Positions 1 through 11,702 of a DNA stretch of 11,702 nucleotides are shown here, in pieces. Source of the stretch: Candidatus Wukongarchaeum yapensis (lineage in GTDB: Archaea; Asgardarchaeota; Wukongarchaeia; Wukongarchaeales; Wukongarchaeaceae); assembly GCA_016840425.1 (NCBI GenBank), contig JAEOSI010000051.1:1-11702 (forward strand), in the 5' to 3' direction. A program made the translations under genes and the position numbers. Under the pieces are notes generated by a model. That model did not search any database. It was not told where the DNA came from and saw only the letters and a program-made list of their open reading frames with translations. Within the stretch, counting starts at the first letter, position 1, and every line of letters starts with the position of its first letter.

Positions 1-100
1 CTTCCTCTTCCTCTATTTCTTCTTCCTCTTCCTCTATTTCTTCTTCCTCTTCCTCTATTTCTTCTTCCTCTTCCTCTATTTCTTCTTCCTCTTCCTCTAT
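1..100 (-). repeat. Perfect 21-bp coding tandem repeat (plus-strand unit ttcttcttcctcttcctctat; minus-strand ATAGAGGAAGAGGAAGAAGAA = IEEEEEE)
   Basis: Four identical full units at 17-37, 38-58, 59-79 and 80-100, plus the last 16 nt of a fifth at 1-16. In frame with the <1..1480 CDS and truncated by the window edge. Confidence 0.97.
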
Positions 101-1480
101 TGTTTTCTCTGTAAAGACTACCTCTGCTTCTAAGAGGCGATTAGCGGTTTCGTAAGCTTTTTCAACGGTGAGAATAAGTTCTCTTTTCAGTCGGTTGTTC
201 AGTTTTTCGGCGATTTTTTCCGCCTGTTTTAAGCCTTCCTCTTTATCTTCAGGCAAAGGAGACTCTTTCCATTGATCTTTTGGTGAACTAACCTCCGGGT
301 TTTTCTCGACAAGCCTTACTGAAAAATCTTCTTCTGAAACGTAACACGAAGCATAATTTGGTTGTATTAATGGGCATGCGCCAAACAAGCACTTGTTGCC
401 TGTAGAATACTCATGGTTACATACGAAATATTTTTTCCCTATCTTGGTACGGTAAACACATTGTTTTTTGAATCCTGTCCAAAGAGCTTTTTCCTTGATC
501 ACTTTCAGCGCCTCTTTACTTTCATTTTCAAGGGTAACATTTGCAAATAAATCTTTTTCAAAAATTTTTGCAAACTTTCTAACTTGGTCTGTTTCCATTT
601 CGAAAGGTGCACCAATAACGCACCAAACACCCGATTTAACCATCTCTCTAAACTTTTCAATAAGGGCTTCATTTTCTTGGCTGAGGGACATTTGCCTCAT
701 TTTTTTAGAAAGCAAAGTTTTTAGACTTTCTGGGAGAGTACTCCAAACGTTGAGTCCCATTAAAACTTGGCTCTCCAGTTTCTCAACCTCTACGTTATTT
801 CCCACAAGTTCACCAACAATATCTTTTAGCCGTATCATGTAAGGAAATATCCCGTTAAAAGCATATTCTAAAGGCACGTCTATAGCGAAAGGTGTATGAA
901 GCACGATAGGTTCTCCCTCATTAAATATAGATTCTGCCTGTTGTAAAACATCTTTATTTAAATACAGTAGAGGGGTTATATCGTACTCTAAAATAAGATC
1001 TCTTATCTTTTCTGGGATTTCTTCAGAACTTACAAAAAGTTCCGGATCACAGCGTTTTAAAATATATTCTAAAACTTTAACGATCTCTGTTTTAGGATCC
1101 TTTCCTTTCTCTTCTTCTTCAAGATACTCGGGAGTTCCTGCCTTTAAACGGAAGCCTATGGTTTTATAAGAGTTTGCATAATTTATCAATATATCCAGCC
1201 TGTTACGCCCTCCAGTAAAATCGATATCATAATAATTAGAACGTGCACAAACAGGTAAAACTAGCACAGGCTCTTTTTCAAAGCTTTCAGCCAAGTCCAA
1301 ATTGCTTTCAAGCTCATACGTTGGAATATTCCACCTGAGACCTTCCCAGTCAAAAAAACAATACTTGAGACCTGTCCGCGCAACAGTTTCAACAAGCTGA
1401 AGGGTGCGCAAACTCACATCTTCGCCCTTAAACTCAATAACCGAACGTTTTATCGATATTCCGCCTGCCAAAAAAACCAA
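1..1480 (-). CDS. Mak16-like 4-Cys domain protein with a large N-terminal domain (possible degenerate LLM/Mer-like barrel) and a Glu-rich repeat tail; 3' end runs off the window
   Basis: Manual translation shows a stop-free minus-strand frame from 1537 to 1 (upstream in-frame TGA at 1538-1540). The likely start is TTG at 1480, with GAGGGG 6 nt upstream; TTG at 1471 or 1501 are alternatives. 493 codons lie in the window. The segment W-TGFKKQ-C-VYRTKIGKKYFV-C-NHEYSTGNK-C-LFGA-CPL-IQPN-YA...KNPEVSSPKDQW-KESP-L-PEDKEEG-LKQ matches the Mak16 N-terminal domain as I recall it. Not in the ORF track. Confidence 0.85.
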   Translation of the reverse strand, partial: MVFLAGGISIKRSVIEFKGEDVSLRTLQLVETVARTGLKYCFFDWEGLRWNIPTYELESNLDLAESFEKEPVLVLPVCARSNYYDIDFTGGRNRLDILINYANSYKTIGFRLKAGTPEYLEEEEKGKDPKTEIVKVLEYILKRCDPELFVSSEEIPEKIRDLILEYDITPLLYLNKDVLQQAESIFNEGEPIVLHTPFAIDVPLEYAFNGIFPYMIRLKDIVGELVGNNVEVEKLESQVLMGLNVWSTLPESLKTLLSKKMRQMSLSQENEALIEKFREMVKSGVWCVIGAPFEMETDQVRKFAKIFEKDLFANVTLENESKEALKVIKEKALWTGFKKQCVYRTKIGKKYFVCNHEYSTGNKCLFGACPLIQPNYASCYVSEEDFSVRLVEKNPEVSSPKDQWKESPLPEDKEEGLKQAEKIAEKLNNRLKRELILTVEKAYETANRLLEAEVVFTEKTIEEEEEEIEEEEEEIEEEEEEIEEEEEEIEEEE

Positions 1481-1551
1481 AACTTTCCCCTCAATAATCA
1501 AAAAATAACAAATATTCAAAAACAATCTTTTTGATAATCATATACTCCTAG

Positions 1552-1562
1552 TTTTTAAAAAA
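1552..1562. promoter_or_regulatory. Candidate bidirectional TATA-like element between divergent genes
   Basis: TTTTTAAAAAA (1552-1561 is a perfect palindrome) lies near the middle of the 1481-1625 gap between the Mak16-like gene and cooT-thyA. The context is AT-rich, so support is weak. Confidence 0.35.
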
Positions 1563-1625
1563 TCTTTTTAGTGAGGTTAATAAACATGTTTTCTATTTCT
1601 AAAACTTGTGGTAGGTGTAACCAAA

Positions 1626-1856
1626 ATGTGTGAATTTAATGTTTTTTTAAAAAAGGGTGACGAAGAAGAAAAAATAGCTGAAAACATAGTGAAAGTTCAC
1701 ACGTATAACCAAGGAGTAGAGCTAAGAGATCCGCTCGGAGTGCCTCTCTTCATCAAAAATTCAATAATCGAAAATGTTGACGTTATGTCTGAAAAACTCG
1801 TTCTTATAGATGTATCAAATAACTCAAAAATCTCCGAAATATTCTCAGGAAAATAG
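1626..1856 (+). CDS. cooT: CooT family nickel-binding protein
   Basis: About 76 aa starting MCE (conserved Cys2), with the pattern MCEFNVFL...EE.I.ENIV.V....GVELRDPLG....I.NSIIENVDV..EKLVL typical of CooT. AGGTG lies 8 nt upstream of ATG 1626; the ORF track used GTG 1608. Confidence 0.8.
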   Translation: MCEFNVFLKKGDEEEKIAENIVKVHTYNQGVELRDPLGVPLFIKNSIIENVDVMSEKLVLIDVSNNSKISEIFSGK

Positions 1857-1868
1857 GGGTATAGAGAA

Positions 1869-2561
1869 GTGCTCATAGAAGCAGAAAGTATAGAGGAAGC
1901 GTATAGAAAGATTCAAACGGCCGTGTATAGCGAAGGTCAAGAAGTGACGGATGAACGGGGAGAAACCACCCTTGAAATAAGGAATTTAATGGTACGTTTA
2001 AGGAATCCTGAAGCACAAATTCCTGCAGATTATGAGCACATGACAACGAAAGAAGCAGAAGAATATGCCTCCGAGTTCCTAACCTTTGCAAAAACAGTTC
2101 CTGTTATCGACAAGGGAGACTTCTTAGGCTTTGAACCAAGGTTTGAATATGAGTATGGTGATCGCATACGCAATTTTGGCTATAAACATCACAAGATAGA
2201 CCAACTTGAAGCCATTATTAACAAGTTGAAAAAAAATCCTAACACTCGGAGAGCGGTAATAGTCTTATGGAACCCGTTAATAGACAACTTTGTAGAAGAA
2301 GTCCCTTGTCTCAATCTCCTATCCTTCCTCATCCGTGAAGGGAAACTCAACCTAACCGCAGTTTTTAGATCGAATGATATGGTGGGAGCATGGCCAGCTA
2401 ATGCCTACGCCTTAATACGCCTTCTAGAATACGTTTGCACGGAACTAAAAACAGAAAAGGGAGACGTAACAACTCTTTCAATCTCTGGACATTTTTACAA
2501 AAGAAAAAAGAGCGTAGAATCCCCATATTCTACAGTTAAAAAATCTTTAATAGAAAAATGA
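1869..2561 (+). CDS. thyA: Thymidylate synthase, archaeal/methanogen-type ThyA
   Basis: Motifs YEYGDRI, NPNTRRAVIVLWNP, catalytic VPCL, FRSND, WPANAY (Asn, dUMP-specific) and SGHFY. GGGGT lies 8 nt before the GTG start, 12 nt after the cooT stop. Confidence 0.92.
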   Translation: MLIEAESIEEAYRKIQTAVYSEGQEVTDERGETTLEIRNLMVRLRNPEAQIPADYEHMTTKEAEEYASEFLTFAKTVPVIDKGDFLGFEPRFEYEYGDRIRNFGYKHHKIDQLEAIINKLKKNPNTRRAVIVLWNPLIDNFVEEVPCLNLLSFLIREGKLNLTAVFRSNDMVGAWPANAYALIRLLEYVCTELKTEKGDVTTLSISGHFYKRKKSVESPYSTVKKSLIEK

Positions 2562-2630
2562 CATCTTCTTGCGAGTTGTTCAAATTTTATAATCTAAATA
2601 TTTATTTTTAATCACCTCTCCCTCTCAAAA

Positions 2631-2642
2631 TTTTTAAATAAA
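2631..2642 (+). promoter_or_regulatory. Candidate TATA box for the GNAT gene
   Basis: TTTTTAAATAAA preceded by CAAAA, about 60 nt upstream of ATG 2700; SD-like GAGGT at 2688-2692. Confidence 0.3.
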
Positions 2643-2699
2643 GATCAAAGATTGATGTGCAATTATGATTATTATGGATGATATTAAGAGGTAATCATA

Positions 2700-3455
2700 A
2701 TGAATGATATTAAAATAGTTACTGTAGATGAAAATAATATTTCTGAGTATGGCTTTTATTGTTCAAAAAATCCAAAATATGAAGGTTATCAACTGAAATT
2801 CGATTGGTTAAAGCAACGCTTTACTGAAGGTCTAAAAATAAAACTTTTACAGTCAAATACAGAAGGCACGATAGGCTTCATTGAATATATTCCAGGTGAA
2901 TATGCATGGAGAGCTGTTGATGCGAGTGGATATTTGGTGATTCATTGTATTTATATCTATAGTAAAAAAGATCGGAAAAAAGGATATGGTTCACTTTTAG
3001 TAAATGATTGTATTGAAGATGCAAAAAAAGAGAAAAAAAACGGTGTTGCAGTTGTTACAAGTGATGGTCCGATGATGGCTGAGAAGAGATTATTTTTGAA
3101 GAATGGATTTGAGGTTGTTGATAAAGCGGAACGTTTTGAATTATTAGTAAAACAGCTCAAGGAAGGCACTTTACCAAAGTTTAAAAATTGGGAAAAGGAA
3201 CTGAGTAAATATAAGGGCTTGAATTTAATTTATGCGAATCAATGCCCATATCATAAAAAAGCTGTGAGCGCAATTTGTGATACTGCGGAGGAGAAGGGGC
3301 TTCAGGTTAAAGTTTTTGAAATTAAAGATGCTAAAGATGCTCAGAATGCTCCTTCAATATATGGTGTATTTTGCTTAGTTCATGATGGAAAACTTCTTGC
3401 TGATCATTATATAAGTAAGACAAGATTTCTAAATATTTTTAACAAAGAATTGTAA
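2700..3455 (+). CDS. GNAT family N-acetyltransferase with C-terminal YoaP-like domain
   Basis: GFIEYIPGEYAWR, acetyl-CoA motif A RKKGYGSLL, FLKNGF, and a YoaP-type C-terminus (NQCPY...AQNAPSIYGVFCLVHDGKLL). Confidence 0.85.
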   Translation: MNDIKIVTVDENNISEYGFYCSKNPKYEGYQLKFDWLKQRFTEGLKIKLLQSNTEGTIGFIEYIPGEYAWRAVDASGYLVIHCIYIYSKKDRKKGYGSLLVNDCIEDAKKEKKNGVAVVTSDGPMMAEKRLFLKNGFEVVDKAERFELLVKQLKEGTLPKFKNWEKELSKYKGLNLIYANQCPYHKKAVSAICDTAEEKGLQVKVFEIKDAKDAQNAPSIYGVFCLVHDGKLLADHYISKTRFLNIFNKEL

Positions 3456-3482
3456 TAAAATCTTACATAATCTTGGTTTTAT

Positions 3483-4229
3483 TTAATCTTGGGAAGGGTT
3501 TAATATCTCTTTTAGAACGTCTTTTACTTTGAATGGTGTGTCTAATACGGAGATGCCTTCAATTTCTGAAAGTTTTTTAGCGTTTTCGACATCGATTTTT
3601 CTTGTCTTTATTTTAGCTTTTTCTCCCCATTTTATAGCATTGTAGGAGCATGCTTCTACGCACTTTTTACACCCGTTACATTTTAACAAATCTATTGAGA
3701 TCTTTCCCTCTCTGAGAAAAGCGGCTTCTTTTGGGCAAACTTCCACAACGGGACAGGGATCGCAACTCTCGCATAATAGAGGGTCTGTTGTGATGGCGAG
3801 GGTTGTTTCGATAAATCCTTCGTAAGGGTCTGTTGGCACTATTATAACAGGTACTTCTCCCTTCATAGCATGTGAAACACAGACGGTTACAAGCGTGTCA
3901 GCTATACCTTGAAGGATTTTAGCCACCGTGTTTGTGGTTGTAGGAGAAACTATAAGGGCATCATACTCTCCTATAGCTAGTCTTGCAGCCTTTGGGAAGC
4001 TTGCCCCTTGATCCTCCTCGAAAAAGCTTTCATTAAAATGACTGTCATCAGCCAACTCCAAAAGAGAGTCTGAAAGCCCGTACATACGGATGACTTCTCT
4101 CCCAGCCTTTGAAACAAAAATTGTCATATCAGTATTTAGCTCCTTTTTTAAAGAGCTCATCAATTCAAAGCTGTCTTGGAGGAAATGACCAGCACCCGTT
4201 ATACCCCAAGCTAACCTGACCTTTTTCAA
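3483..4229 (-). CDS. dmrX: Dihydromethanopterin reductase-like flavoprotein (DmrX/MJ0208 family) with 2x[4Fe-4S] ferredoxin domain
   Basis: Flavoprotein motifs AWGITGAGH and PTTTNTVAKILQGIADTLVT, plus CESCDPC...CP and CNGCKKCVEAC. Preferred start is TTG 4229 (GGTGA 8 nt upstream); the ORF track start GTG 4244 is an alternative. Confidence 0.8.
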   Translation of the reverse strand: MKKVRLAWGITGAGHFLQDSFELMSSLKKELNTDMTIFVSKAGREVIRMYGLSDSLLELADDSHFNESFFEEDQGASFPKAARLAIGEYDALIVSPTTTNTVAKILQGIADTLVTVCVSHAMKGEVPVIIVPTDPYEGFIETTLAITTDPLLCESCDPCPVVEVCPKEAAFLREGKISIDLLKCNGCKKCVEACSYNAIKWGEKAKIKTRKIDVENAKKLSEIEGISVLDTPFKVKDVLKEILNPSQD

Positions 4230-4314
4230 TCTTCTTATCACCACATTAAAAGAGGACTATCAAACCTTTATTTATCTTTTTAAAAGCTTATTAAAAAGGA
4301 GGTTGTAAGCGGTT

Positions 4315-5307
4315 TTAGGTCTCTTCTATGAAGGCGCCTTTGTTCCTTGTGGGCGTTATAAAGAACTTACCGCTTATTTTTCTCTCGTTTAGAAGGTCTG
4401 AAGCTGTTTTCATCAAGTCTTCTGCCCGTTTTTTCCCTTCAGTGATTGCGAAAGTTGTTGGTCCAAAAGAACTCATTCCAACGCCTTCCGCACCGTTTTC
4501 CAGTAAGGTGTTTAAAAGGTTCTTTATTATTGGGTGTTGTAACTCCACTTCAATCTTTTTAAATCCCAAACTAATTATCTTTGTAAGGCTTTGGCCGAAA
4601 ACCTCTAGGTCTCTCTCTACAATGGCAGGCAAAGTCACCATGAATATTAGCCTGCAAAGCTTCTCTACATCCTCTGAAGGAATAGGACAGTGTTTTTGAA
4701 ATATATTGAATTCTTCCTCTCCTGAGGCACCTCTTTTAACATTTGGAATAGTGACTACCCAATACCATTCTTCTGGTAGGTTATATTTCGCGAGAACAGG
4801 GGCGGGCTTAGCCTTAGAAGCCCTGCTTGGCAAGAACTCTTTTTTCTCCTTATCCGGGCCAAAAGAGTGACCTCCGTCCAGTATAAAACCGCCATCTTCA
4901 AAGGCAGCTACGCCTATCCCTGAGGTGCCTCCACGCCCCATTATGTGGGCAAGCTCCCTTGTGGTTGCTTTTATTCCGTGAAGCTTTGAGAGAATTGTAG
5001 CAGTTGCAAGGCTTAATTGGGTTTTTGAACCCAAACCCACATGCTCTGGAATCTTCTCATAGACCTTTAAATAATCTCCTTCCTCCAAACCGTAATGGTC
5101 AAGAAACCTTTTAGCAAGGGAAGTTACAAGATCTTTTTGAACACCTTCTACCACCAAATCCCCCCCCAGTTTTCCCTCCATCACAACTTGAGGCTTTTCT
5201 AATGAAACACCTATCCCGCCGTCAACCCTGCAAAGTTCGCCGTTTTCATCTATTAACGTTATGTGCATCCTACAAGGAGTTTCAATTTTTATATTACTTG
5301 GACACAA
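4315..5307 (-). CDS. mptG: Beta-ribofuranosylaminobenzene 5'-phosphate (RFA-P) synthase, GHMP kinase fold
   Basis: TPCRMHITLIDENGELCRVDGGIG, IPEHVGLGSKTQL, RGGTSGIGVAAFEDGGFILDGGH, FLPSRAS and GMSSFGPT. TTG 5307 lies 9 nt from GGAGGA; TTG 5316 is an alternative. Confidence 0.9.
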   Translation of the reverse strand: MCPSNIKIETPCRMHITLIDENGELCRVDGGIGVSLEKPQVVMEGKLGGDLVVEGVQKDLVTSLAKRFLDHYGLEEGDYLKVYEKIPEHVGLGSKTQLSLATATILSKLHGIKATTRELAHIMGRGGTSGIGVAAFEDGGFILDGGHSFGPDKEKKEFLPSRASKAKPAPVLAKYNLPEEWYWVVTIPNVKRGASGEEEFNIFQKHCPIPSEDVEKLCRLIFMVTLPAIVERDLEVFGQSLTKIISLGFKKIEVELQHPIIKNLLNTLLENGAEGVGMSSFGPTTFAITEGKKRAEDLMKTASDLLNERKISGKFFITPTRNKGAFIEET

Positions 5308-5326
5308 GGGAAACAATCCTCCTTTT

Positions 5327-5950
5327 TCAAATTTTACTCAAAACATAATTTATGATAGATTTTTCTTTAGATGAAGAGGATGTAACGCGGTTCACTAAAT
5401 TAGAATAATAATCTATTAATTTGCGAAGTTTTTGTGCTTCTTCAAAATTTTTGGTGACCTCTTCATGCACACGGACGCGTGTAGCGTGAATAATCGTTTC
5501 CAAGGTAGAGAAAAAACCGCGGTTAAGGGGTTTAAGAAAAGGATTTTTTATCCCTCCTGTCACGATTTTTCCCTCAAATTCCGCTCGTCCCTCCTTTTTT
5601 CCTACGTATTTTGTTTCAATTTCTAACCAAGCATCAGCCTTTTTTAAAACAGGGGCATCAACAATAAAACCTTCCCCGAACTCATCAGGCTCAAGCTCCA
5701 CGTTTTTTTCAAGGGCGGCTTTAGCAAACAGTAAAAGATCCTGGGTGAGGTTAACAACACAACAATTTTTCTGCCTGAGATTTTTATAAGTGTCTGTCTC
5801 CTCATAGGGGCGTATTATCAAAAGATCAAGATCGGGTGTAAAAACGCCCATAGGCGCAACGTTAGGAATCCCATTTTCGTGATAAGTAGTAATGAGGGTT
5901 TCATAAATAAAATCTTCCTGAAAATCTAAAACCTCTAATATTTTTTCCAT
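5327..5950 (-). CDS. DUF447 family protein (FMN-binding split-barrel-like)
   Basis: YETLITT...PNVAPMGV, IRPYEETDTYKNL, LNRGFFSTLETIIHATR and a helical C-terminus. The family is commonly found beside methanopterin genes. Confidence 0.8.
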   Translation of the reverse strand: MEKILEVLDFQEDFIYETLITTYHENGIPNVAPMGVFTPDLDLLIIRPYEETDTYKNLRQKNCCVVNLTQDLLLFAKAALEKNVELEPDEFGEGFIVDAPVLKKADAWLEIETKYVGKKEGRAEFEGKIVTGGIKNPFLKPLNRGFFSTLETIIHATRVRVHEEVTKNFEEAQKLRKLIDYYSNLVNRVTSSSSKEKSIINYVLSKI

Positions 5951-6027
5951 TTTTTCTATATGCCCCCTAAAAACAAGGAAAGAAATTATCGACTAACTAC
6001 CCATTTTTTTGGCGTGTTTATTTTTAT

Positions 6028-7443
6028 TCATTCTGAAAAGTTTTGTCGCTGTTTTATAAATTTAACAACTTTTTCTGCTTTTTCAACAGCTAGTCTTGCG
6101 GCTTCTCTTGCCCTCTCCATTAACTCTTCTTTATTTTCTGGAGGATTCTCACCAACAAGTTTTTTTACATCAGTATAGCCTGCCTCTCTAAACTTTGGAT
6201 GAAGGTCTTTTTCTTCACCGTTTTTATCAATCAAAATGCCCTTTTTTGGGTTGCTTATAACTTCTCCTATAACATCAATCTTTACGCCTATTCTTTTGAT
6301 ACAGTCAAGAACCGGGTCTACTACATTTTCTGGGCAAAATATTAAGAGGGCATCCATTGAAACCCCTAAATAATCGATGGAAAGTTCTTTTAACATCCTT
6401 AATACCTTTTCATTAAGAAGGGCTTCAATTTTCCTCTCATCGACCTTTATGCCTACTTTGGCTGTTTTACAGATCTCGCTTATGTCGCCACGAATACCGC
6501 CATTAGTCCAGTCAGCTAAAGCATGAATATTGCTGAAGAGTTCTTCTTTGTGTAAAGCTTCACAGGCCCTTATAAACTGGACGTTCAAAGTCTCAATAAT
6601 CGCGTCGTAATAGTCATTATATATGGCAGTAGTTGTTATAGTTCCGCCGCCAGCACCTTCGGTCATCAAAACCTTATCACTTGGTCTGATATTTTTCCTC
6701 GAAGCTAGGGTGGAATATTTTGGTATTACGCCTACAGTACCCACGCATGAAACCAACCTATTACCGATAACCATGTCACCTCCAACCCGTAGAGTAGAAC
6801 CTGCAACAAGAGGCACTTTTGAAAGTTCTGAAACAGCTCTTATACCTGCAGAAAAATCAAAAAGTTTTCCCACATCCCCATCGTCCGCAAGATGGACATC
6901 AGTCAACATGGCCACAGGGATAGCGCCCTTAACGTAAACATCCCTTAAAGATGCTCTTGCTACATGAAAACCTGCAATGAAAGGAAAATCGCTTAAACGT
7001 GAATGCATACCATCAACAGCTATAACTATTATATCATTCTCGCCATGAACGGCTCCAGCATCATCCTGATCTAAGGGACCCATAAGGATTTTACTACTTC
7101 CTACGCCCACACCGCCTTCTTCTTCACCTTCTAGAGAGCTTATTTCTGCTAGAAGGCAGTGGACGAAAAAGTCGCCTTCTCCCCTACAACCTACACCTAA
7201 ATCGTGCATTGAAGCGTTGGACTCGGGAACGGATAAAAGTTCTCCTAAAAATCCTCCAAGACTTTTGTTTGAAACTAAAACTTCGTTAAAAACAGCTTTT
7301 GCCATGTCTAAAGCTTGTTCACTGCTTATGTTTTTATATACTAAAAACTCGTCGCAAAGCCTTTGAATGATGGAATCATGTTGTTCGTTCTTTTTGAGTA
7401 AAGCGTTTACTAAACCTTCAATATCAGACAAGCGTAAAACCAC
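6028..7443 (-). CDS. Archaeal AIR synthase-related protein (PurM/HypE/ThiL/SelD superfamily), function unknown
   Basis: GVGCRGEGDFFVH, QDDAGAV, AVDGMHSRLSDFPF, GSTLRVGGDMV, MTEGAGGGTI and DWTNGGIRGD. Start is GTG 7443 or TTG 7431. Confidence 0.8.
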   Translation of the reverse strand: MVLRLSDIEGLVNALLKKNEQHDSIIQRLCDEFLVYKNISSEQALDMAKAVFNEVLVSNKSLGGFLGELLSVPESNASMHDLGVGCRGEGDFFVHCLLAEISSLEGEEEGGVGVGSSKILMGPLDQDDAGAVHGENDIIVIAVDGMHSRLSDFPFIAGFHVARASLRDVYVKGAIPVAMLTDVHLADDGDVGKLFDFSAGIRAVSELSKVPLVAGSTLRVGGDMVIGNRLVSCVGTVGVIPKYSTLASRKNIRPSDKVLMTEGAGGGTITTTAIYNDYYDAIIETLNVQFIRACEALHKEELFSNIHALADWTNGGIRGDISEICKTAKVGIKVDERKIEALLNEKVLRMLKELSIDYLGVSMDALLIFCPENVVDPVLDCIKRIGVKIDVIGEVISNPKKGILIDKNGEEKDLHPKFREAGYTDVKKLVGENPPENKEELMERAREAARLAVEKAEKVVKFIKQRQNFSE

Positions 7444-7507
7444 ACAAAATTGTTAGCTGTCAAAAAAGGTGGAACTTAATCACTCTTTTAACGTTTGCGG
7501 ATCTTTA

Positions 7508-8353
7508 TTATTGGATTATTTTTAAGGGTTTAAAGATGTAGTTTCTATCCATTCCAAGCTCTTTTATCGAATAACCTAAAGCATAACCTATTAACTGGGT
7601 AAAAAACAGCACAGGTAACTTTTTTGGGAGGTCTATCACGTTCTGATAAACATCAAACATGGAGGCACAATTTCCGCATCCAATAACCAAAAGGTCTGCT
7701 CCCACTTTCAAAGCCTCTTCAATCCTTCTCCTTCCAAGCTCCAAAGCAAGAGGTTTATTTAGAGGAAGTAGTGTGGATCCACAGCAACGAAATCCTCCCT
7801 CATAATCTACAACTTCTACTCCGCAAGCCTCTACCAATCTTACAAAATCATATGTTTCCATTTCTAAAGATTCTGAAGGGGGTCTTATGATCTGGCAAGG
7901 AGTTTGAACAGCCACTTTTAAAGAGGAAAGATCGCGAACAATATTTTCTTTAATCTTCTCCAGTCCTATATCGTTGAGGAGAAAGTCTGAGATATGCTTA
8001 ACCTTTGAAATACCAGAGAATTCTCTCCCAATAAGGGCAAGAATGTCGTTTATTTTCTGATTTTTTTCAAGATCTTTAAGTAAGAGGTTGCGGACGCTGT
8101 TCAAAGTCGCTGTACAAGAACCGCAAAGCGTCAAGATGGGGATTTTTAACTCATCAGCTACTGCTAAATTTCTACCGGCAATAGTTAAGAATAGTTCTTC
8201 ACTTGCTGATTCTGCCATTAACGAGCCACAACAGGTGAAACCGTCTACGTCAACTATTTCGACTCCAAAATGGTTTAAAATAACCCTTGCAGACTTCTCA
8301 TACTGATTAAAACGGTAAGGTATGATGCATCCTCTAAAAAGACCTACTTCCAA
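7508..8353 (-). CDS. hdrB: Heterodisulfide reductase subunit B-like protein (two CCG domains)
   Basis: FRGCIIP, TCCGS, LCGSC in domain 1; TPCQIIRP, RCCGS, GCGNC in domain 2; PVLFFTQLIGYALG at the C-terminus. Start placed at TTG 8353 (GGTGGA upstream) rather than 8407. Confidence 0.85.
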   Translation of the reverse strand: MEVGLFRGCIIPYRFNQYEKSARVILNHFGVEIVDVDGFTCCGSLMAESASEELFLTIAGRNLAVADELKIPILTLCGSCTATLNSVRNLLLKDLEKNQKINDILALIGREFSGISKVKHISDFLLNDIGLEKIKENIVRDLSSLKVAVQTPCQIIRPPSESLEMETYDFVRLVEACGVEVVDYEGGFRCCGSTLLPLNKPLALELGRRRIEEALKVGADLLVIGCGNCASMFDVYQNVIDLPKKLPVLFFTQLIGYALGYSIKELGMDRNYIFKPLKIIQ

Positions 8354-8467
8354 CGATTCCACCAAGAAGGAAAACCCCCAAAAATAATAAAAAATAATCC
8401 TTAACAATATGGTCTTATCTTATCTTTAATAAAAAGAATTTCTTTTAATTTTAATGGGGGTAAAATA

Positions 8468-9931
8468 ATGGAAGAAGAGACCCTTGATCCAATTGATTGG
8501 AATCAAATGAAGGATTTAGGTTGTCAAATGGTAGAAGATATGATGAAATATTTAGAAAGCGTTCGTGAGCGTTCTGTCTGGCAACCAATTCCAAAAACTG
8601 TTAAGGATTTCTTCAAGAAACCGTTACCGGAAGATCCAGAAGGTCTAAATAAAACGTATCAAGATTTTTTAGAAAATATTCTTCCCTATCCTTTGGGTAA
8701 TATTCATCCCAGATTCTGGGGTTGGGTGATCGGTACTGGAACTCCTCTCGGAATGCTAGCAGAGATGTTAGCGGCAGGAATGAATCCAAATTTGGCAGGA
8801 GGAGACCATATAGCATTTTATGTTGAAAGCCAAGTAATTGATTGGTTTAAGGAAATAATGGGTTTTCCAAGCACAGCTAGCGGGTTGTTAGTTAGTGGAG
8901 GATCAATGGCAAATCTGGTTGGTTTAACTGTTGCTCGCAATTCTAAGGCAGGGTTCGATATCAGAAAACATGGTTTACAAGCTGCATCCCAAAAAATGAC
9001 TATTTATGGTTCAGAAGAAACGCACAGTTCTAATCAAAAAGCAATTGAATTATTGGGACTAGGTAGCGATGCCTTCCGTAAAATACCCGTGAATGAAGAA
9101 TTTCAAATTGATATTGAGAGTCTAAAGGCACATATTTCAGAAGATCAAGAAAATGACTATCATCCAATTTGCATTATTGGTAATGCAGGAACTATAAATA
9201 CTGGTGCATTTGATGACCTAAATTCCTTAGCAAATATCTGCGAACAAGAAGATATGTGGTTTCACGTTGATGGAGCTTTTGGAGCGTGGGCAATATTATC
9301 TCCCAAACTAAAATCTTTGGTCTCCGGTATAAATAGAGCTGATTCTTTGGCTTTTGATCTCCACAAATGGATGTATATGCCTTACGAAGTAGGATGCACT
9401 TTAGTAAAAAAAGAAGAAGAACACCGACAAGCCTTTTCGTTGACCCCGGATTACCTTACTCATACTTTAAGAGGAATTGGGGGTGGGGAAAAATGGTTTA
9501 GTGACTATGGTGTCCAACTTTCTCGTGGATTTAGGGCATTGAAGGTCTGGATGGGGATTAAAGAACATGGTATTCGAAAATATGGAAGACTCATCCAGCA
9601 AAATGTTGAACAGGCACAATATTTGGTTAAATTAGTCCAGTCGTCTTCTGAGCTAGAACTATTAGCACCTGTACCATTAAACATCGTGTGTTTTAGATTT
9701 TTAGCTGATGGGCTTGATGATTCGTCGTTGAATGACCTAAACAAAGAATTATTATTAAGATTGCACGAAAGTGGGATTGCTGCTCCATCTTATACGATGA
9801 TTGGTGATAAATATGCCCTTCGTGTAGCAATTACAAATCATCGGAGCCGAAGAGAAGACTTTGATATTTTAGTAAAAACAGTGTTAAAATTTGGAAAAGA
9901 GTTGGTGGGCGGAAAATATGGATATGAGTGA
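8468..9931 (+). CDS. PLP-dependent group II decarboxylase, aromatic-L-amino-acid/glutamate decarboxylase-like
   Basis: HPRFWGWV, SGGSMANL, HSSNQKA, AGTINTGAFD, WFHVDGAFG, PLP-lysine motif DLHKW (9356-9370), QLSRGFRALK and LNIVCFR. Confidence 0.9.
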   Translation: MEEETLDPIDWNQMKDLGCQMVEDMMKYLESVRERSVWQPIPKTVKDFFKKPLPEDPEGLNKTYQDFLENILPYPLGNIHPRFWGWVIGTGTPLGMLAEMLAAGMNPNLAGGDHIAFYVESQVIDWFKEIMGFPSTASGLLVSGGSMANLVGLTVARNSKAGFDIRKHGLQAASQKMTIYGSEETHSSNQKAIELLGLGSDAFRKIPVNEEFQIDIESLKAHISEDQENDYHPICIIGNAGTINTGAFDDLNSLANICEQEDMWFHVDGAFGAWAILSPKLKSLVSGINRADSLAFDLHKWMYMPYEVGCTLVKKEEEHRQAFSLTPDYLTHTLRGIGGGEKWFSDYGVQLSRGFRALKVWMGIKEHGIRKYGRLIQQNVEQAQYLVKLVQSSSELELLAPVPLNIVCFRFLADGLDDSSLNDLNKELLLRLHESGIAAPSYTMIGDKYALRVAITNHRSRREDFDILVKTVLKFGKELVGGKYGYE

Positions 9932-10718
9932 GTGGCTATCATATTGGTATCCCTACATTTGTAACTATTTAGGAATAGGCCCTGAGGAAGATTTAGAATC
10001 TGCAAGACTGCTGAACGATATTATTACCAATTCTAGAGTTGATGTTCAAAAAAACAAGAAAGAGCTTAAGAAAATGGTCTTTGGAAAACCGGTGATAGTT
10101 TTTGGAGCAGGTCCTTCCTTAGACGGTGATATTCTAAACGTCCTTCATGAAAATTTCCTTGATAAATGCGTAATCATTGCGGCGGATGGAGCTACAAAAG
10201 CCCTTTTAAACAAGCAAATTATTCCAAAAGCTACTGCTACAGATCTTGACGGTGACCTAGAAAGTTTGATGTATGCATGTCAATCAGGTTCAATAATGGT
10301 GATACTTGCCCATGGAGACAATAAAGAAAAGATTTCAGGCATCGTTCCAGAGCTTATAAAAGAAGGGTGTAAAATCGTTGGAACTACTCAAACAAAACCG
10401 TTTGGCGTGCTGGAAAATTATGGGGGATTTACTGACGGAGATAGAGGCGCTTATATGGCCGTAGAAATGGGCGCGAAAATGATAATACTTGCAGGTTTCG
10501 ATTTGGGAGAAAAGATAGGGCGATATTCAAAAAAGGAAAGTCAATTAGGCGGTATAGGTCACGAAATGAAGCTAAAAAAACTCAAACTTGCAAAAGAACT
10601 TCTAACAAACCTAGGGAAAACAGGGAAAATACCAGTACTAAACATCACTAGTGGGGGGGAAGAGATTCCAAACGTCCCAAAAATAACGACAAAACAACTA
10701 AAAAATATGTTGAACTAA
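9918..10718 (+). CDS. mptE: 6-hydroxymethyl-7,8-dihydropterin pyrophosphokinase (MptE/DUF115)
   Basis: VFGAGPSL, IAADGAT, TDLDGD, LAHGDN, GTTQ, NYGGFTDGDRG and LAGFD. Start is ATG 9918 (or 9924), with GGTGGGCGG upstream; overlaps the decarboxylase 3' end by 14 nt. Confidence 0.9.
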   Translation: MDMSEWLSYWYPYICNYLGIGPEEDLESARLLNDIITNSRVDVQKNKKELKKMVFGKPVIVFGAGPSLDGDILNVLHENFLDKCVIIAADGATKALLNKQIIPKATATDLDGDLESLMYACQSGSIMVILAHGDNKEKISGIVPELIKEGCKIVGTTQTKPFGVLENYGGFTDGDRGAYMAVEMGAKMIILAGFDLGEKIGRYSKKESQLGGIGHEMKLKKLKLAKELLTNLGKTGKIPVLNITSGGEEIPNVPKITTKQLKNMLN

Positions 10719-10744
10719 AAAACGTTCAAGTTCTATTCAAAAAA

Positions 10745-11242
10745 TTATCGCATTTTGATGGTACAAGACGCTCGCTGGGTTTTCATTTCATAAACAATGC
10801 ACGTGATTTCATGGATGTTTTCTTTATCTGAAAGCTCTTCTACAAGTTTTTCACACAAAAGTCTAGAAAACTCTTCCACAGTAGTATTAGCAATAGGAAG
10901 CAACACTACCTCATCCTCAGGTATCTCGTAAACCTTTCCCTCCCTTAAAACCATCTTCACAAAGCCATCTTCTTTTGTTATTTTAAGATCTTTGCAATGA
11001 ACAGCAAGCAAAGTCTTATGATCCCACTCCTCAAGTATACTTCTAAGCAAAGGCTTTATGTCGAGGAAATCGATGACCATGAAATCCTCGTCCTGGTCTC
11101 CCTTAATAATAACCTCTAGCTCGTAGTTATGACCGTGTAATCGCTCACAATAGCGCGTACCGACCACAAAGTGAGCGCAAGCAAACTTAAATCCTTCTGG
11201 CCCCAAACGAACAGCAAAAGTTTTATCCATCTGGCTTTTCAA
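10745..11242 (-). CDS. PTPS/QueD (COG0720) family pterin enzyme with CExxHGH motif
   Basis: FACAHF, CERLHGHNY (motif at 11129-11149), IDFLDIK, WDHKTL, TTVEE and VYE. GGAGGG lies 7 nt upstream of TTG 11242; ATG 11230 is an alternative. Confidence 0.88.
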   Translation of the reverse strand: MKSQMDKTFAVRLGPEGFKFACAHFVVGTRYCERLHGHNYELEVIIKGDQDEDFMVIDFLDIKPLLRSILEEWDHKTLLAVHCKDLKITKEDGFVKMVLREGKVYEIPEDEVVLLPIANTTVEEFSRLLCEKLVEELSDKENIHEITCIVYEMKTQRASCTIKMR

Positions 11243-11257
11243 TCACTAACCCTCCGT

Positions 11258-11702
11258 TTAAATTTCTATACCAGCGCTTTTTACAGTTTTCTCTACTATG
11301 CTTTTAACGGCAGAATAGGCAGGAGAATCTTCAGGAATATCAAGCAAGTTTTCCCCGTCAAGACTGAACTCCATGACCTTTGAATCATAAGGCAAAGAAC
11401 CAGCATAAGATAGCTTATTCTCCTCAGCAAATTTTTTCAAAGAAACTTCAATTTTTTCAGAAACCTTATTTCCAACAATATAGACTTTTTTGAAATTAAC
11501 TTTCACCTTCTCAGCAATTTCCAGTATTCGTTTTATTGTTTTTAACCCGGTTTTTGTGCCATCAGTAATGAGGTAGAGTATATCGATGTCTCGCTGGGTT
11601 CTTCTGTTTACATGTTCAAGTCCTGCGGGCATATCAGCCAAACTTATGTCATAATTTTCTGATAAAGTGTCAAGAATTCGAGTCAAAAGAGAATTTAAGC
11701 TA
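11258..11702 (-). CDS. cooC: CooC/AcsF-type nickel-insertion ATPase (MinD/ParA-like), C-terminal part; 5' end outside the window
   Basis: The frame is open to the window edge (...SLNSLLTRILDTL). Motifs DMPAGLEHVNRRT, DILYLITD, GLKTIKRI, VGNK and LPYD match CooC. The P-loop is not visible. Confidence 0.8.
   Translation of the reverse strand, partial: SLNSLLTRILDTLSENYDISLADMPAGLEHVNRRTQRDIDILYLITDGTKTGLKTIKRILEIAEKVKVNFKKVYIVGNKVSEKIEVSLKKFAEENKLSYAGSLPYDSKVMEFSLDGENLLDIPEDSPAYSAVKSIVEKTVKSAGIEI

Follow-up and report, generated by a model that had tools for sequence, protein, structure and literature searches.

The eukaryotic protein Mak16, a member of the Nsa1-Rpf1-Mak16-Rrp1 module found in pre-60S particles, and the ribosomal protein eL28 fall into one Pfam family, PF01778 (Ribosomal_L28e), which covers eL28 and the N-terminal domain of Mak16. 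Only in 2025 was it shown that Mak16 needs a [4Fe-4S] cluster in 60S assembly: its motif CX11-13CX9CX4CP coordinates a low-potential [4Fe-4S] cluster, on which the Mak16-Rpf1 complex depends, and in yeast both Rpf1 binding and 25S rRNA levels rely on the cluster cysteines (PMC12646323). Yeast mak16 is not complemented by the Mak16 homologues of other eukaryotes (PMC12646323). The four-cysteine (Cys4) site and an acidic tail are described as features of Mak16, the former as its hallmark, and archaea are not mentioned in that study (PMC12646323). Homologues termed L28e/Mak16 were found by Eme et al. (2023) to be confined to Hodarchaeales and Njordarchaeales among the Asgard archaea (PMC10307638), and a second 2025 study, which includes a phylogeny, added Panguiarchaeaceae and Wukongarchaeia (PMC12411855); hence, the presence of the family in Asgard archaea is already published and is not new. 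Here, we analyse a stretch of 11,702 nucleotides (the window) from Candidatus Wukongarchaeum yapensis (contig JAEOSI010000051.1, positions 1 to 11,702), at the start of which a gene on the minus strand (2..1525) encodes a Mak16-type domain with the ligand spacing of Mak16, as one part of a three-part Asgard fusion protein. We consider it probable that this domain binds a metal and is located on large-subunit rRNA.

The Mak16-like domain and its four cysteines

The minus-strand translation of 2-1525 contains the pattern W-x6-C-x12-C-x9-C-x4-CPL-x4-YA at residues ~349-395 of the open reading frame (ORF), with the Cys codons at 458-460, 419-421, 389-391 and 374-376. It is followed by K-x2-E-x3-P-x3-W-x4-L-x7-L-x-Q, a stretch in which the HMMER alignment to yeast Mak16 contains a one-residue gap. 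The motif C-x12-C-x9-C-x4-CP (374..460, minus strand; residues 341, 354, 364 and 369 in the intact orthologue P0002), as read from the sequence, is identical in spacing to the Mak16 signature CX11-13CX9CX4CP (PMC12646323). In an alignment of 40 Asgard rows, consisting of 30 extracted genes, nine metagenomic representatives and our own domain as the reference, ligand positions 1, 2 and 4 and the following Pro are invariant (40/40), and the third position is occupied by Cys in 24 rows and by His in the other 16, giving CCCC or CCHC throughout; none of the 40 sequences is missing a ligand. Cys and His have been exchanged at position 3 at least three times on the tree, and the CCHC homologues may bind a different metal centre. 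Given the conserved motif, Cys341/354/364/369 most likely hold a [4Fe-4S] cluster, or else Zn.

The domain around this site (179..481, minus strand; residues ~335-450), which we classify as an eL28/Mak16 fold of the Mak16 N-terminal-domain type, was identified by PF01778, phmmer against the PDB, a family profile, AlphaFold2 and Foldseek. ORF residues 349-449 align to positions 3-104 of the 115 in the PF01778 profile (E 5e-7); the whole ORF scores 30.7 bits, the excised domain 32.1 bits and the match in the genome scan 31.5 bits (E 2e-7 to 5e-7); the orthologues P0002-P0005 carry PF01778 in the precomputed annotation of the database, and a relative of the same order (G014) matches it at 65.6 bits. 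When all PDB chains were searched with phmmer, Mak16 of Chaetomium, human, budding yeast and fission yeast were the top four matches (best E 7e-4), and no eL28 chain was returned by this single-sequence search; matches of the Cys region to beta-defensins (E > 0.2) were dismissed as noise. Using a family profile built from 23 Asgard homologues, with the domain of the fusion protein included, we recovered the same four Mak16 proteins at E 3.8e-18 to 6.7e-14 (55-69 bits), across Mak16 residues 4-129, whereas the best eL28 chain reached an insignificant E 0.46 (13.5 bits).

The predicted structure is in agreement with these searches. In the AlphaFold2 model of residues 322-478, which has a predicted local distance difference test (pLDDT) value of 89.9, the knot-like eL28/Mak16 fold is present, and Mak16 chains from pre-60S particles take the first 13 places among its Foldseek matches in the PDB. 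The best of them (8i9p_Ce) has E 1e-8, a template modelling (TM) score of 0.73 and a root-mean-square deviation (rmsd) of 2.1 A at 21% identity over ~130 residues. The eL28 chains rank after Mak16 (TM ~0.67, 12% identity), and the 49 matches listed at E<=1e-3 are either Mak16 or ribosome entries in which we took the matched chain as eL28. Identities in these superpositions are 19-22% to Mak16 and 9-14% to eL28; thus, the domain belongs to the eL28/Mak16 fold and, by sequence profile and identity, is clearly nearer to Mak16 than to eL28. The profile alignment stops at Mak16 residue ~129, and what follows the core in the archaeal protein is only one long alpha-helix (102..196, minus strand; predicted at model residues 108-156) and an acidic repeat.

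An earlier note on this DNA, made by a model from the letters and an ORF list (the sequence-only reading), had proposed a Mak16 homologue here. Its main pattern and Cys codon positions are exact, base for base, and the second stretch is present as it was described; however, it placed them in a small gene missed by the ORF track, whereas they lie inside the 508-codon ORF 2-1525. The homology itself is borne out by the family profile, the fold and the exact cluster-binding motif. The profile search and the superposition on pre-60S Mak16 that it suggested gave the PF01778 and family-profile matches and the structural agreement reported above, and the better match to an unrelated Zn-finger family that it had allowed for did not turn up, Mak16 being the only significant match in the PDB phmmer search.

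The fusion gene and its relatives

The gene was delineated from the ORF list, the translation, its orthologues and synteny as a 508-codon ORF that runs past base 1 of the window and is cut at its 3' end, the window being the start of a contig (C271) of a 2.16-Mb metagenome-assembled genome that is 92% complete. C271 breaks within a perfect 21-bp tandem repeat (1..101, minus strand; period 21, 4.8 copies and 100% matches in Tandem Repeats Finder), which encodes an acidic (IEEEEEE)n tail and is the reason for the break. The same 101 bases close another contig, C135, where the last codons of the gene are found: the frame closes 67 codons from the C135 end, and the acidic tail terminates in ...EENKK there and in P0002. 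The whole gene, with the same synteny, is carried by two independent metagenome contigs from JGI and ENA, encoding 516 and 524 aa, which confirms the C271-C135 join and rules out a chimera. Moreover, intact orthologues (P0002-P0005) have a full length of 516-530 aa, the same unbroken ORF occurs in JGI, ENA and NCBI assemblies, at least four independent assemblies have the same ORF and synteny, and in alignments of the two halves each is 82-86% identical between orthologues. The DUF7388-Mak16 fusion is genuine and not an assembly artefact, and the protein, for which NCBIfam has no family, is one of ~516-530 aa in three parts, namely, an N-terminal DUF7388 TIM barrel, the Mak16-like core with its long helix, and the repetitive acidic tail. 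Its start codon is uncertain; it is probably a non-ATG codon within 1480-1525, and the orthologues were called from TTG at differing positions. Overlapping this putative start in another frame, 16 codons run from a conserved ATG to a TGA (~1490-1541, minus strand). At other loci of the same genome (contigs C78, C20, C259, C157 and C207), we noticed GAA/GAG-rich repeats with 69-77% identity to the 21-bp array; acidic repeat tails may be widespread in this organism and a frequent cause of broken contigs.

The N-terminal domain of ~310 aa (548..1471, minus strand) was assigned by phmmer, alignment, AlphaFold2 and Foldseek as a divergent member of DUF7388 (PF24114), the PF24114 model itself giving no match to it in the Pfam scan or the genome scan. 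phmmer ties the domain to stand-alone proteins of 266-316 aa at E 2e-15 to 5e-4, and all ten relatives of this region that were scanned score above the PF24114 cut-off; those with a named source come from Odinarchaeia, Baldrarchaeia and Bathyarchaeota. Identity to the stand-alone DUF7388 proteins is 21-27%; the eight invariant columns are all kept, and the DUF7388 consensus 'LVAGNxAYLSE' is altered. According to the AlphaFold2 model (pLDDT 86.6), the domain is a (beta/alpha)8 barrel; its closest predicted structures in the AlphaFold database are MJ1239 and AF_2023, and it is superposable on the closest solved ones, those of the F420-dependent methylene-tetrahydromethanopterin (methylene-H4MPT) reductase Mer (1z69_A: E 9e-7, TM 0.64, 14% identity) and of luciferase-like enzymes, which are foremost among 139 PDB matches at E<=1e-3. 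A feature search of the ESM Atlas with the N-terminal domain gave no usable match. Co-folding of the barrel with the Mak16-like half scored 0.15, under the 0.32 mark, a value that speaks neither for nor against contact between them. A canonical F420-dependent Mer (459 bits; C20:630-1610) is present in the same genome, as are two adjoining luciferase-like paralogues (C56:913-2764), and a profile of the barrel family weakly matches its luciferase-like genes. We considered DUF7388 as a stand-in for Mer and rejected this in view of the canonical Mer. The methenyl-H4MPT cyclohydrolase gene Mch was not found in this genome; a genome of the same genus has one.

We scanned 301 Asgard genomes with PF01778 and obtained matches in 33 of them, with a single match in the genome under study. 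Only this genome (G000) and one of the same genus (G002) have frames of 512-577 aa; all other matches, in 31 Asgard genomes and nine metagenomic representatives, are stand-alone open frames of 98-217 aa. A phmmer search of 1.84 billion representative sequences returned 26 matches, among which one cluster (P0004) spans both halves, nine are stand-alone proteins of 136-174 aa that align to residues ~322-470, and 16 align within residues 3-308 (fifteen of 266-316 aa and one fragment of 139 aa). Accordingly, two genes that are separate elsewhere have been fused in this genus alone (G000, G002, P0002-P0005 and P0063-P0065; 496-577 aa). A conserved DUF7388-Mak16 operon was considered as a precursor and rejected, as in the f21 genomes with both genes that were checked (G101, G282 and G258) the two are 700 kb apart or not even on one contig. 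The fusion is a natural 'Rosetta stone', which proposes DUF7388 as a partner for the Mak16-like family in archaea.

The host is an Asgard archaeon, as the sequence-only reading had gathered from the motif: an orthologue with 84% identity, which is identical to the G002 gene, carries the organism name 'Candidatus Hodarchaeota archaeon' in its public record, where it is called a hypothetical protein. In our GTDB-based genome set, the class to which the window belongs has three species only. The sequence-only reading had also cautioned that the family might already be catalogued in Asgard genomes, which it is (PMC10307638, PMC12411855), and had guessed that the novelty would lie in the architecture, in keeping with a DUF7388 fusion confined to one genus. 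What seems to be new is the Mak16-type ligand site throughout the family, its affinity to Mak16 over eL28, and the lineage-specific DUF7388-Mak16 fusion. Neither of the names used in public records, '60S ribosomal protein L28' and 'hypothetical', reflects the Mak16-type site of these proteins.

Gene neighbourhoods and the likely role of the protein

On both intact contigs, the fusion gene sits between a CooT-like/ThyA-like pair and genes for L35Ae and S-adenosylmethionine synthetase, and it is convergent with the L35Ae gene. Stand-alone Mak16-like homologues adjoin S8e-SRP19-Gar1, S6e-aIF2gamma-PIN...KsgA, and ThiI. In the window, an intergenic region (1526..1607), nearly identical in four assemblies, separates the fusion gene from the CooT-like gene (1608-1856, plus strand; 82 aa, with a Pfam CooT match), and the CooT-like and ThyA-like genes (1608-2561) are transcribed divergently from the fusion gene. 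They are followed at 3483-11242 by a methanopterin-type cofactor gene cluster, whose order is kept in two other assemblies and which comprises genes for a flavoprotein with Fer4 (DmrX-like), a GHMP-kinase-family protein, DUF447, an AIR-synthase-like protein, a CCG-domain protein, a pyridoxal-phosphate decarboxylase, an MptE-like protein and PTPS. On a syntenic contig, a small GTPase of the Arf/Ras family and a ubiquitin-conjugating E2 (UQ_con), which are further eukaryotic signature proteins, are encoded a few kb downstream (L057:12308-14360).

As for DUF7388, one stand-alone gene lies between Mch and FwdC/FwdA-like genes (L064:4894-9413), and another, on an Odinarchaeia contig (L052), lies near MptD and SufBC. 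A general linkage between DUF7388 and H4MPT genes is not supported: the nine Asgard genomes with both DUF7388 and Mch all carry them on separate contigs, a search for Mch in the nine f21 genomes with DUF7388 found none, and MptD occurred in only one of the 19 genomes. Only three metagenomic cases suggest a C1/pterin context, and the other contexts of DUF7388 are unrelated to C1 metabolism.

We infer that the Mak16-like domain belongs to a metal-cluster protein of the large ribosomal subunit, because it is homologous to two proteins, Mak16 and eL28, that are both located on 25S/28S rRNA. The domain would hold [4Fe-4S] or Zn through its four cysteines, and would sit on large-subunit rRNA as Mak16 and eL28 do, either during assembly or in the mature subunit. 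We favour this role since the stand-alone relatives adjoin ribosome and translation genes and the fusion gene is convergent with L35Ae, and also since the domain is the sole PF01778 copy in the genome and retains in full the layout of its stand-alone relatives, a core followed by a long helix and an acidic tail. Several observations weigh against this reading as a whole. The PF01778 scores (30.7-32.1 bits) miss the gathering cut-off of 33.2 bits, the single-sequence phmmer search of the 1.84 billion representatives reached no eukaryotic Mak16, and a Pfam scan at E<=10 detected no PF04874, the central/C-terminal region of Mak16 that binds Rpf1 in yeast. A scan for PF04427 (Brix) found no match in this genome but, as it found none in any control genome either, it says nothing about a Brix-domain partner (Rpf1). 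Finally, the core has a net charge of ~+1 and is not strongly basic, and the domain of the fusion protein is on a long branch (1.43 changes per site), which could reflect a changed function after fusion.

The protein might instead be an archaeal orthologue of eL28, present in stoichiometric amounts in mature 50S subunits, and not a transient assembly factor of the Mak16 kind. This is unlikely in our view, in spite of the common fold, on which eL28 chains reach TM 0.67, and of the stand-alone homologues, several of which are labelled '60S ribosomal protein L28' by NCBI, have the size of eL28 (~140 aa) and are located among ribosomal-protein genes. Nor are archaea known to possess the other members of the module, Nsa1, Rpf1 and Rrp1. 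However, the family profile gives 55-69 bits for Mak16 and 13.5 bits, at E 0.46, for eL28, the identities are 19-22% versus 9-14%, and one would hardly expect a core ribosomal protein to be part of a 516-aa fusion with an enzyme-like barrel. Moreover, the Cys4 site is the hallmark of Mak16, and the acidic tail is another of its features (PMC12646323). Sequence similarity and the putative cluster site favour a Mak16-like transient role over an eL28-like resident one, whereas the missing Rpf1-binding central region tells against it, and either role may apply.

The barrel raises the question of whether the Mak16-like module has been re-used in this genus as an Fe-S electron-transfer or redox-sensing domain of a metabolic oxidoreductase, perhaps related to pterin or H4MPT, that has given up the role of a ribosome factor. 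In favour of this, the barrel has F420-dependent Mer and luciferase-like oxidoreductases as its nearest counterparts and keeps the eight invariant DUF7388 columns, the gene adjoins the methanopterin-biosynthesis cluster, some DUF7388 genes are beside Mch/FwdC/FwdA or MptD, the Mak16 cluster is a low-potential one (PMC12646323), and the long branch would fit as well. Nevertheless, we regard this explanation as rather improbable, for the C-terminal half resembles a complete stand-alone member with core, helix and acidic tail and is the only PF01778 copy in a genome that also encodes the canonical Mer, and the fusion gene is divergent from the cofactor cluster. Furthermore, DUF7388 and Mch are never on one contig in the nine Asgard genomes having both, the nine f21 genomes with DUF7388 yielded no Mch, and the remaining DUF7388 contexts have no relation to C1 metabolism. 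As to a chance resemblance between Mak16 and an unrelated zinc finger, or a chimeric assembly, the sub-threshold Pfam score and the contig break inside the gene could be cited in its favour, yet there is hardly any room for it, given a profile match at E 4e-18 to Mak16 only, a fold match of rmsd 2.1 A over ~130 residues that extends well past the Cys region, insignificant defensin matches, and an uninterrupted ORF with the same synteny in four or more independent assemblies.

The presence of the ligand site in every Asgard homologue examined, together with the resemblance to Mak16 over eL28, suggests that the cluster-bearing form is older than the eL28 type and existed before eukaryotes. The stand-alone Asgard homologues provide a small prokaryotic model for the role of the cluster. 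A far more speculative scenario, which we think improbable, is that in this small class of Asgard archaea a Mer-like cofactor-binding barrel was joined to an ancestral Mak16-type Fe-S ribosome factor, linking the redox or C1-cofactor state to large-subunit biogenesis, or else that metabolic enzymes are where the Mak16 fold originated, as a redox module; in a wider sense, the [4Fe-4S] site of Mak16 would then be pre-eukaryotic, and eL28 a later derivative without the cluster.

Comparison with known systems

The barrel half resembles DUF7388 proteins (MJ1239 and AF_2023) in its TIM-barrel fold, in its 21-27% identity and in the eight invariant columns, but differs from them in that it is missed by the Pfam model, has a modified 'LVAGNxAYLSE' stretch and is joined to a Mak16-like domain, which is the case only in this lineage. 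Its structural match to Mer is limited (TM ~0.64 at 14% identity). eL28 has the same overall fold as the C-terminal half (TM ~0.67), belongs to the same Pfam family and is close in size to the stand-alone archaeal homologues, although the sequence similarity is insignificant (E 0.46, 9-14% identity).

With residues 1-128 of eukaryotic Mak16, the domain has in common the knot-like fold (TM 0.73, rmsd 2.1 A), the CX11-13CX9CX4CP spacing, the W before Cys1, the EY after Cys2, the YA after CPL and the P-x3-W stretch, as well as a long helix after the core and an acidic low-complexity C-terminal tail. On the other hand, no counterpart of the central Rpf1-binding helices and PF04874 was found in the archaeal protein in the Pfam scan, its N-terminal TIM barrel of ~310 aa occurs in no Mak16, and the identity is 19-22%. 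Unlike the eukaryotic hosts of Mak16, the archaeal host has no nucleolus. Another close relative is the Asgard L28e/Mak16 signature protein (PF01778), which is stand-alone and from which the more divergent fusion domain is set apart by its score (31 versus up to 66 bits) and its long branch; nevertheless, the two are of the same family, group together in profile searches and in the tree, and have the invariant W, C, C, C-P, K, W and L columns in common.

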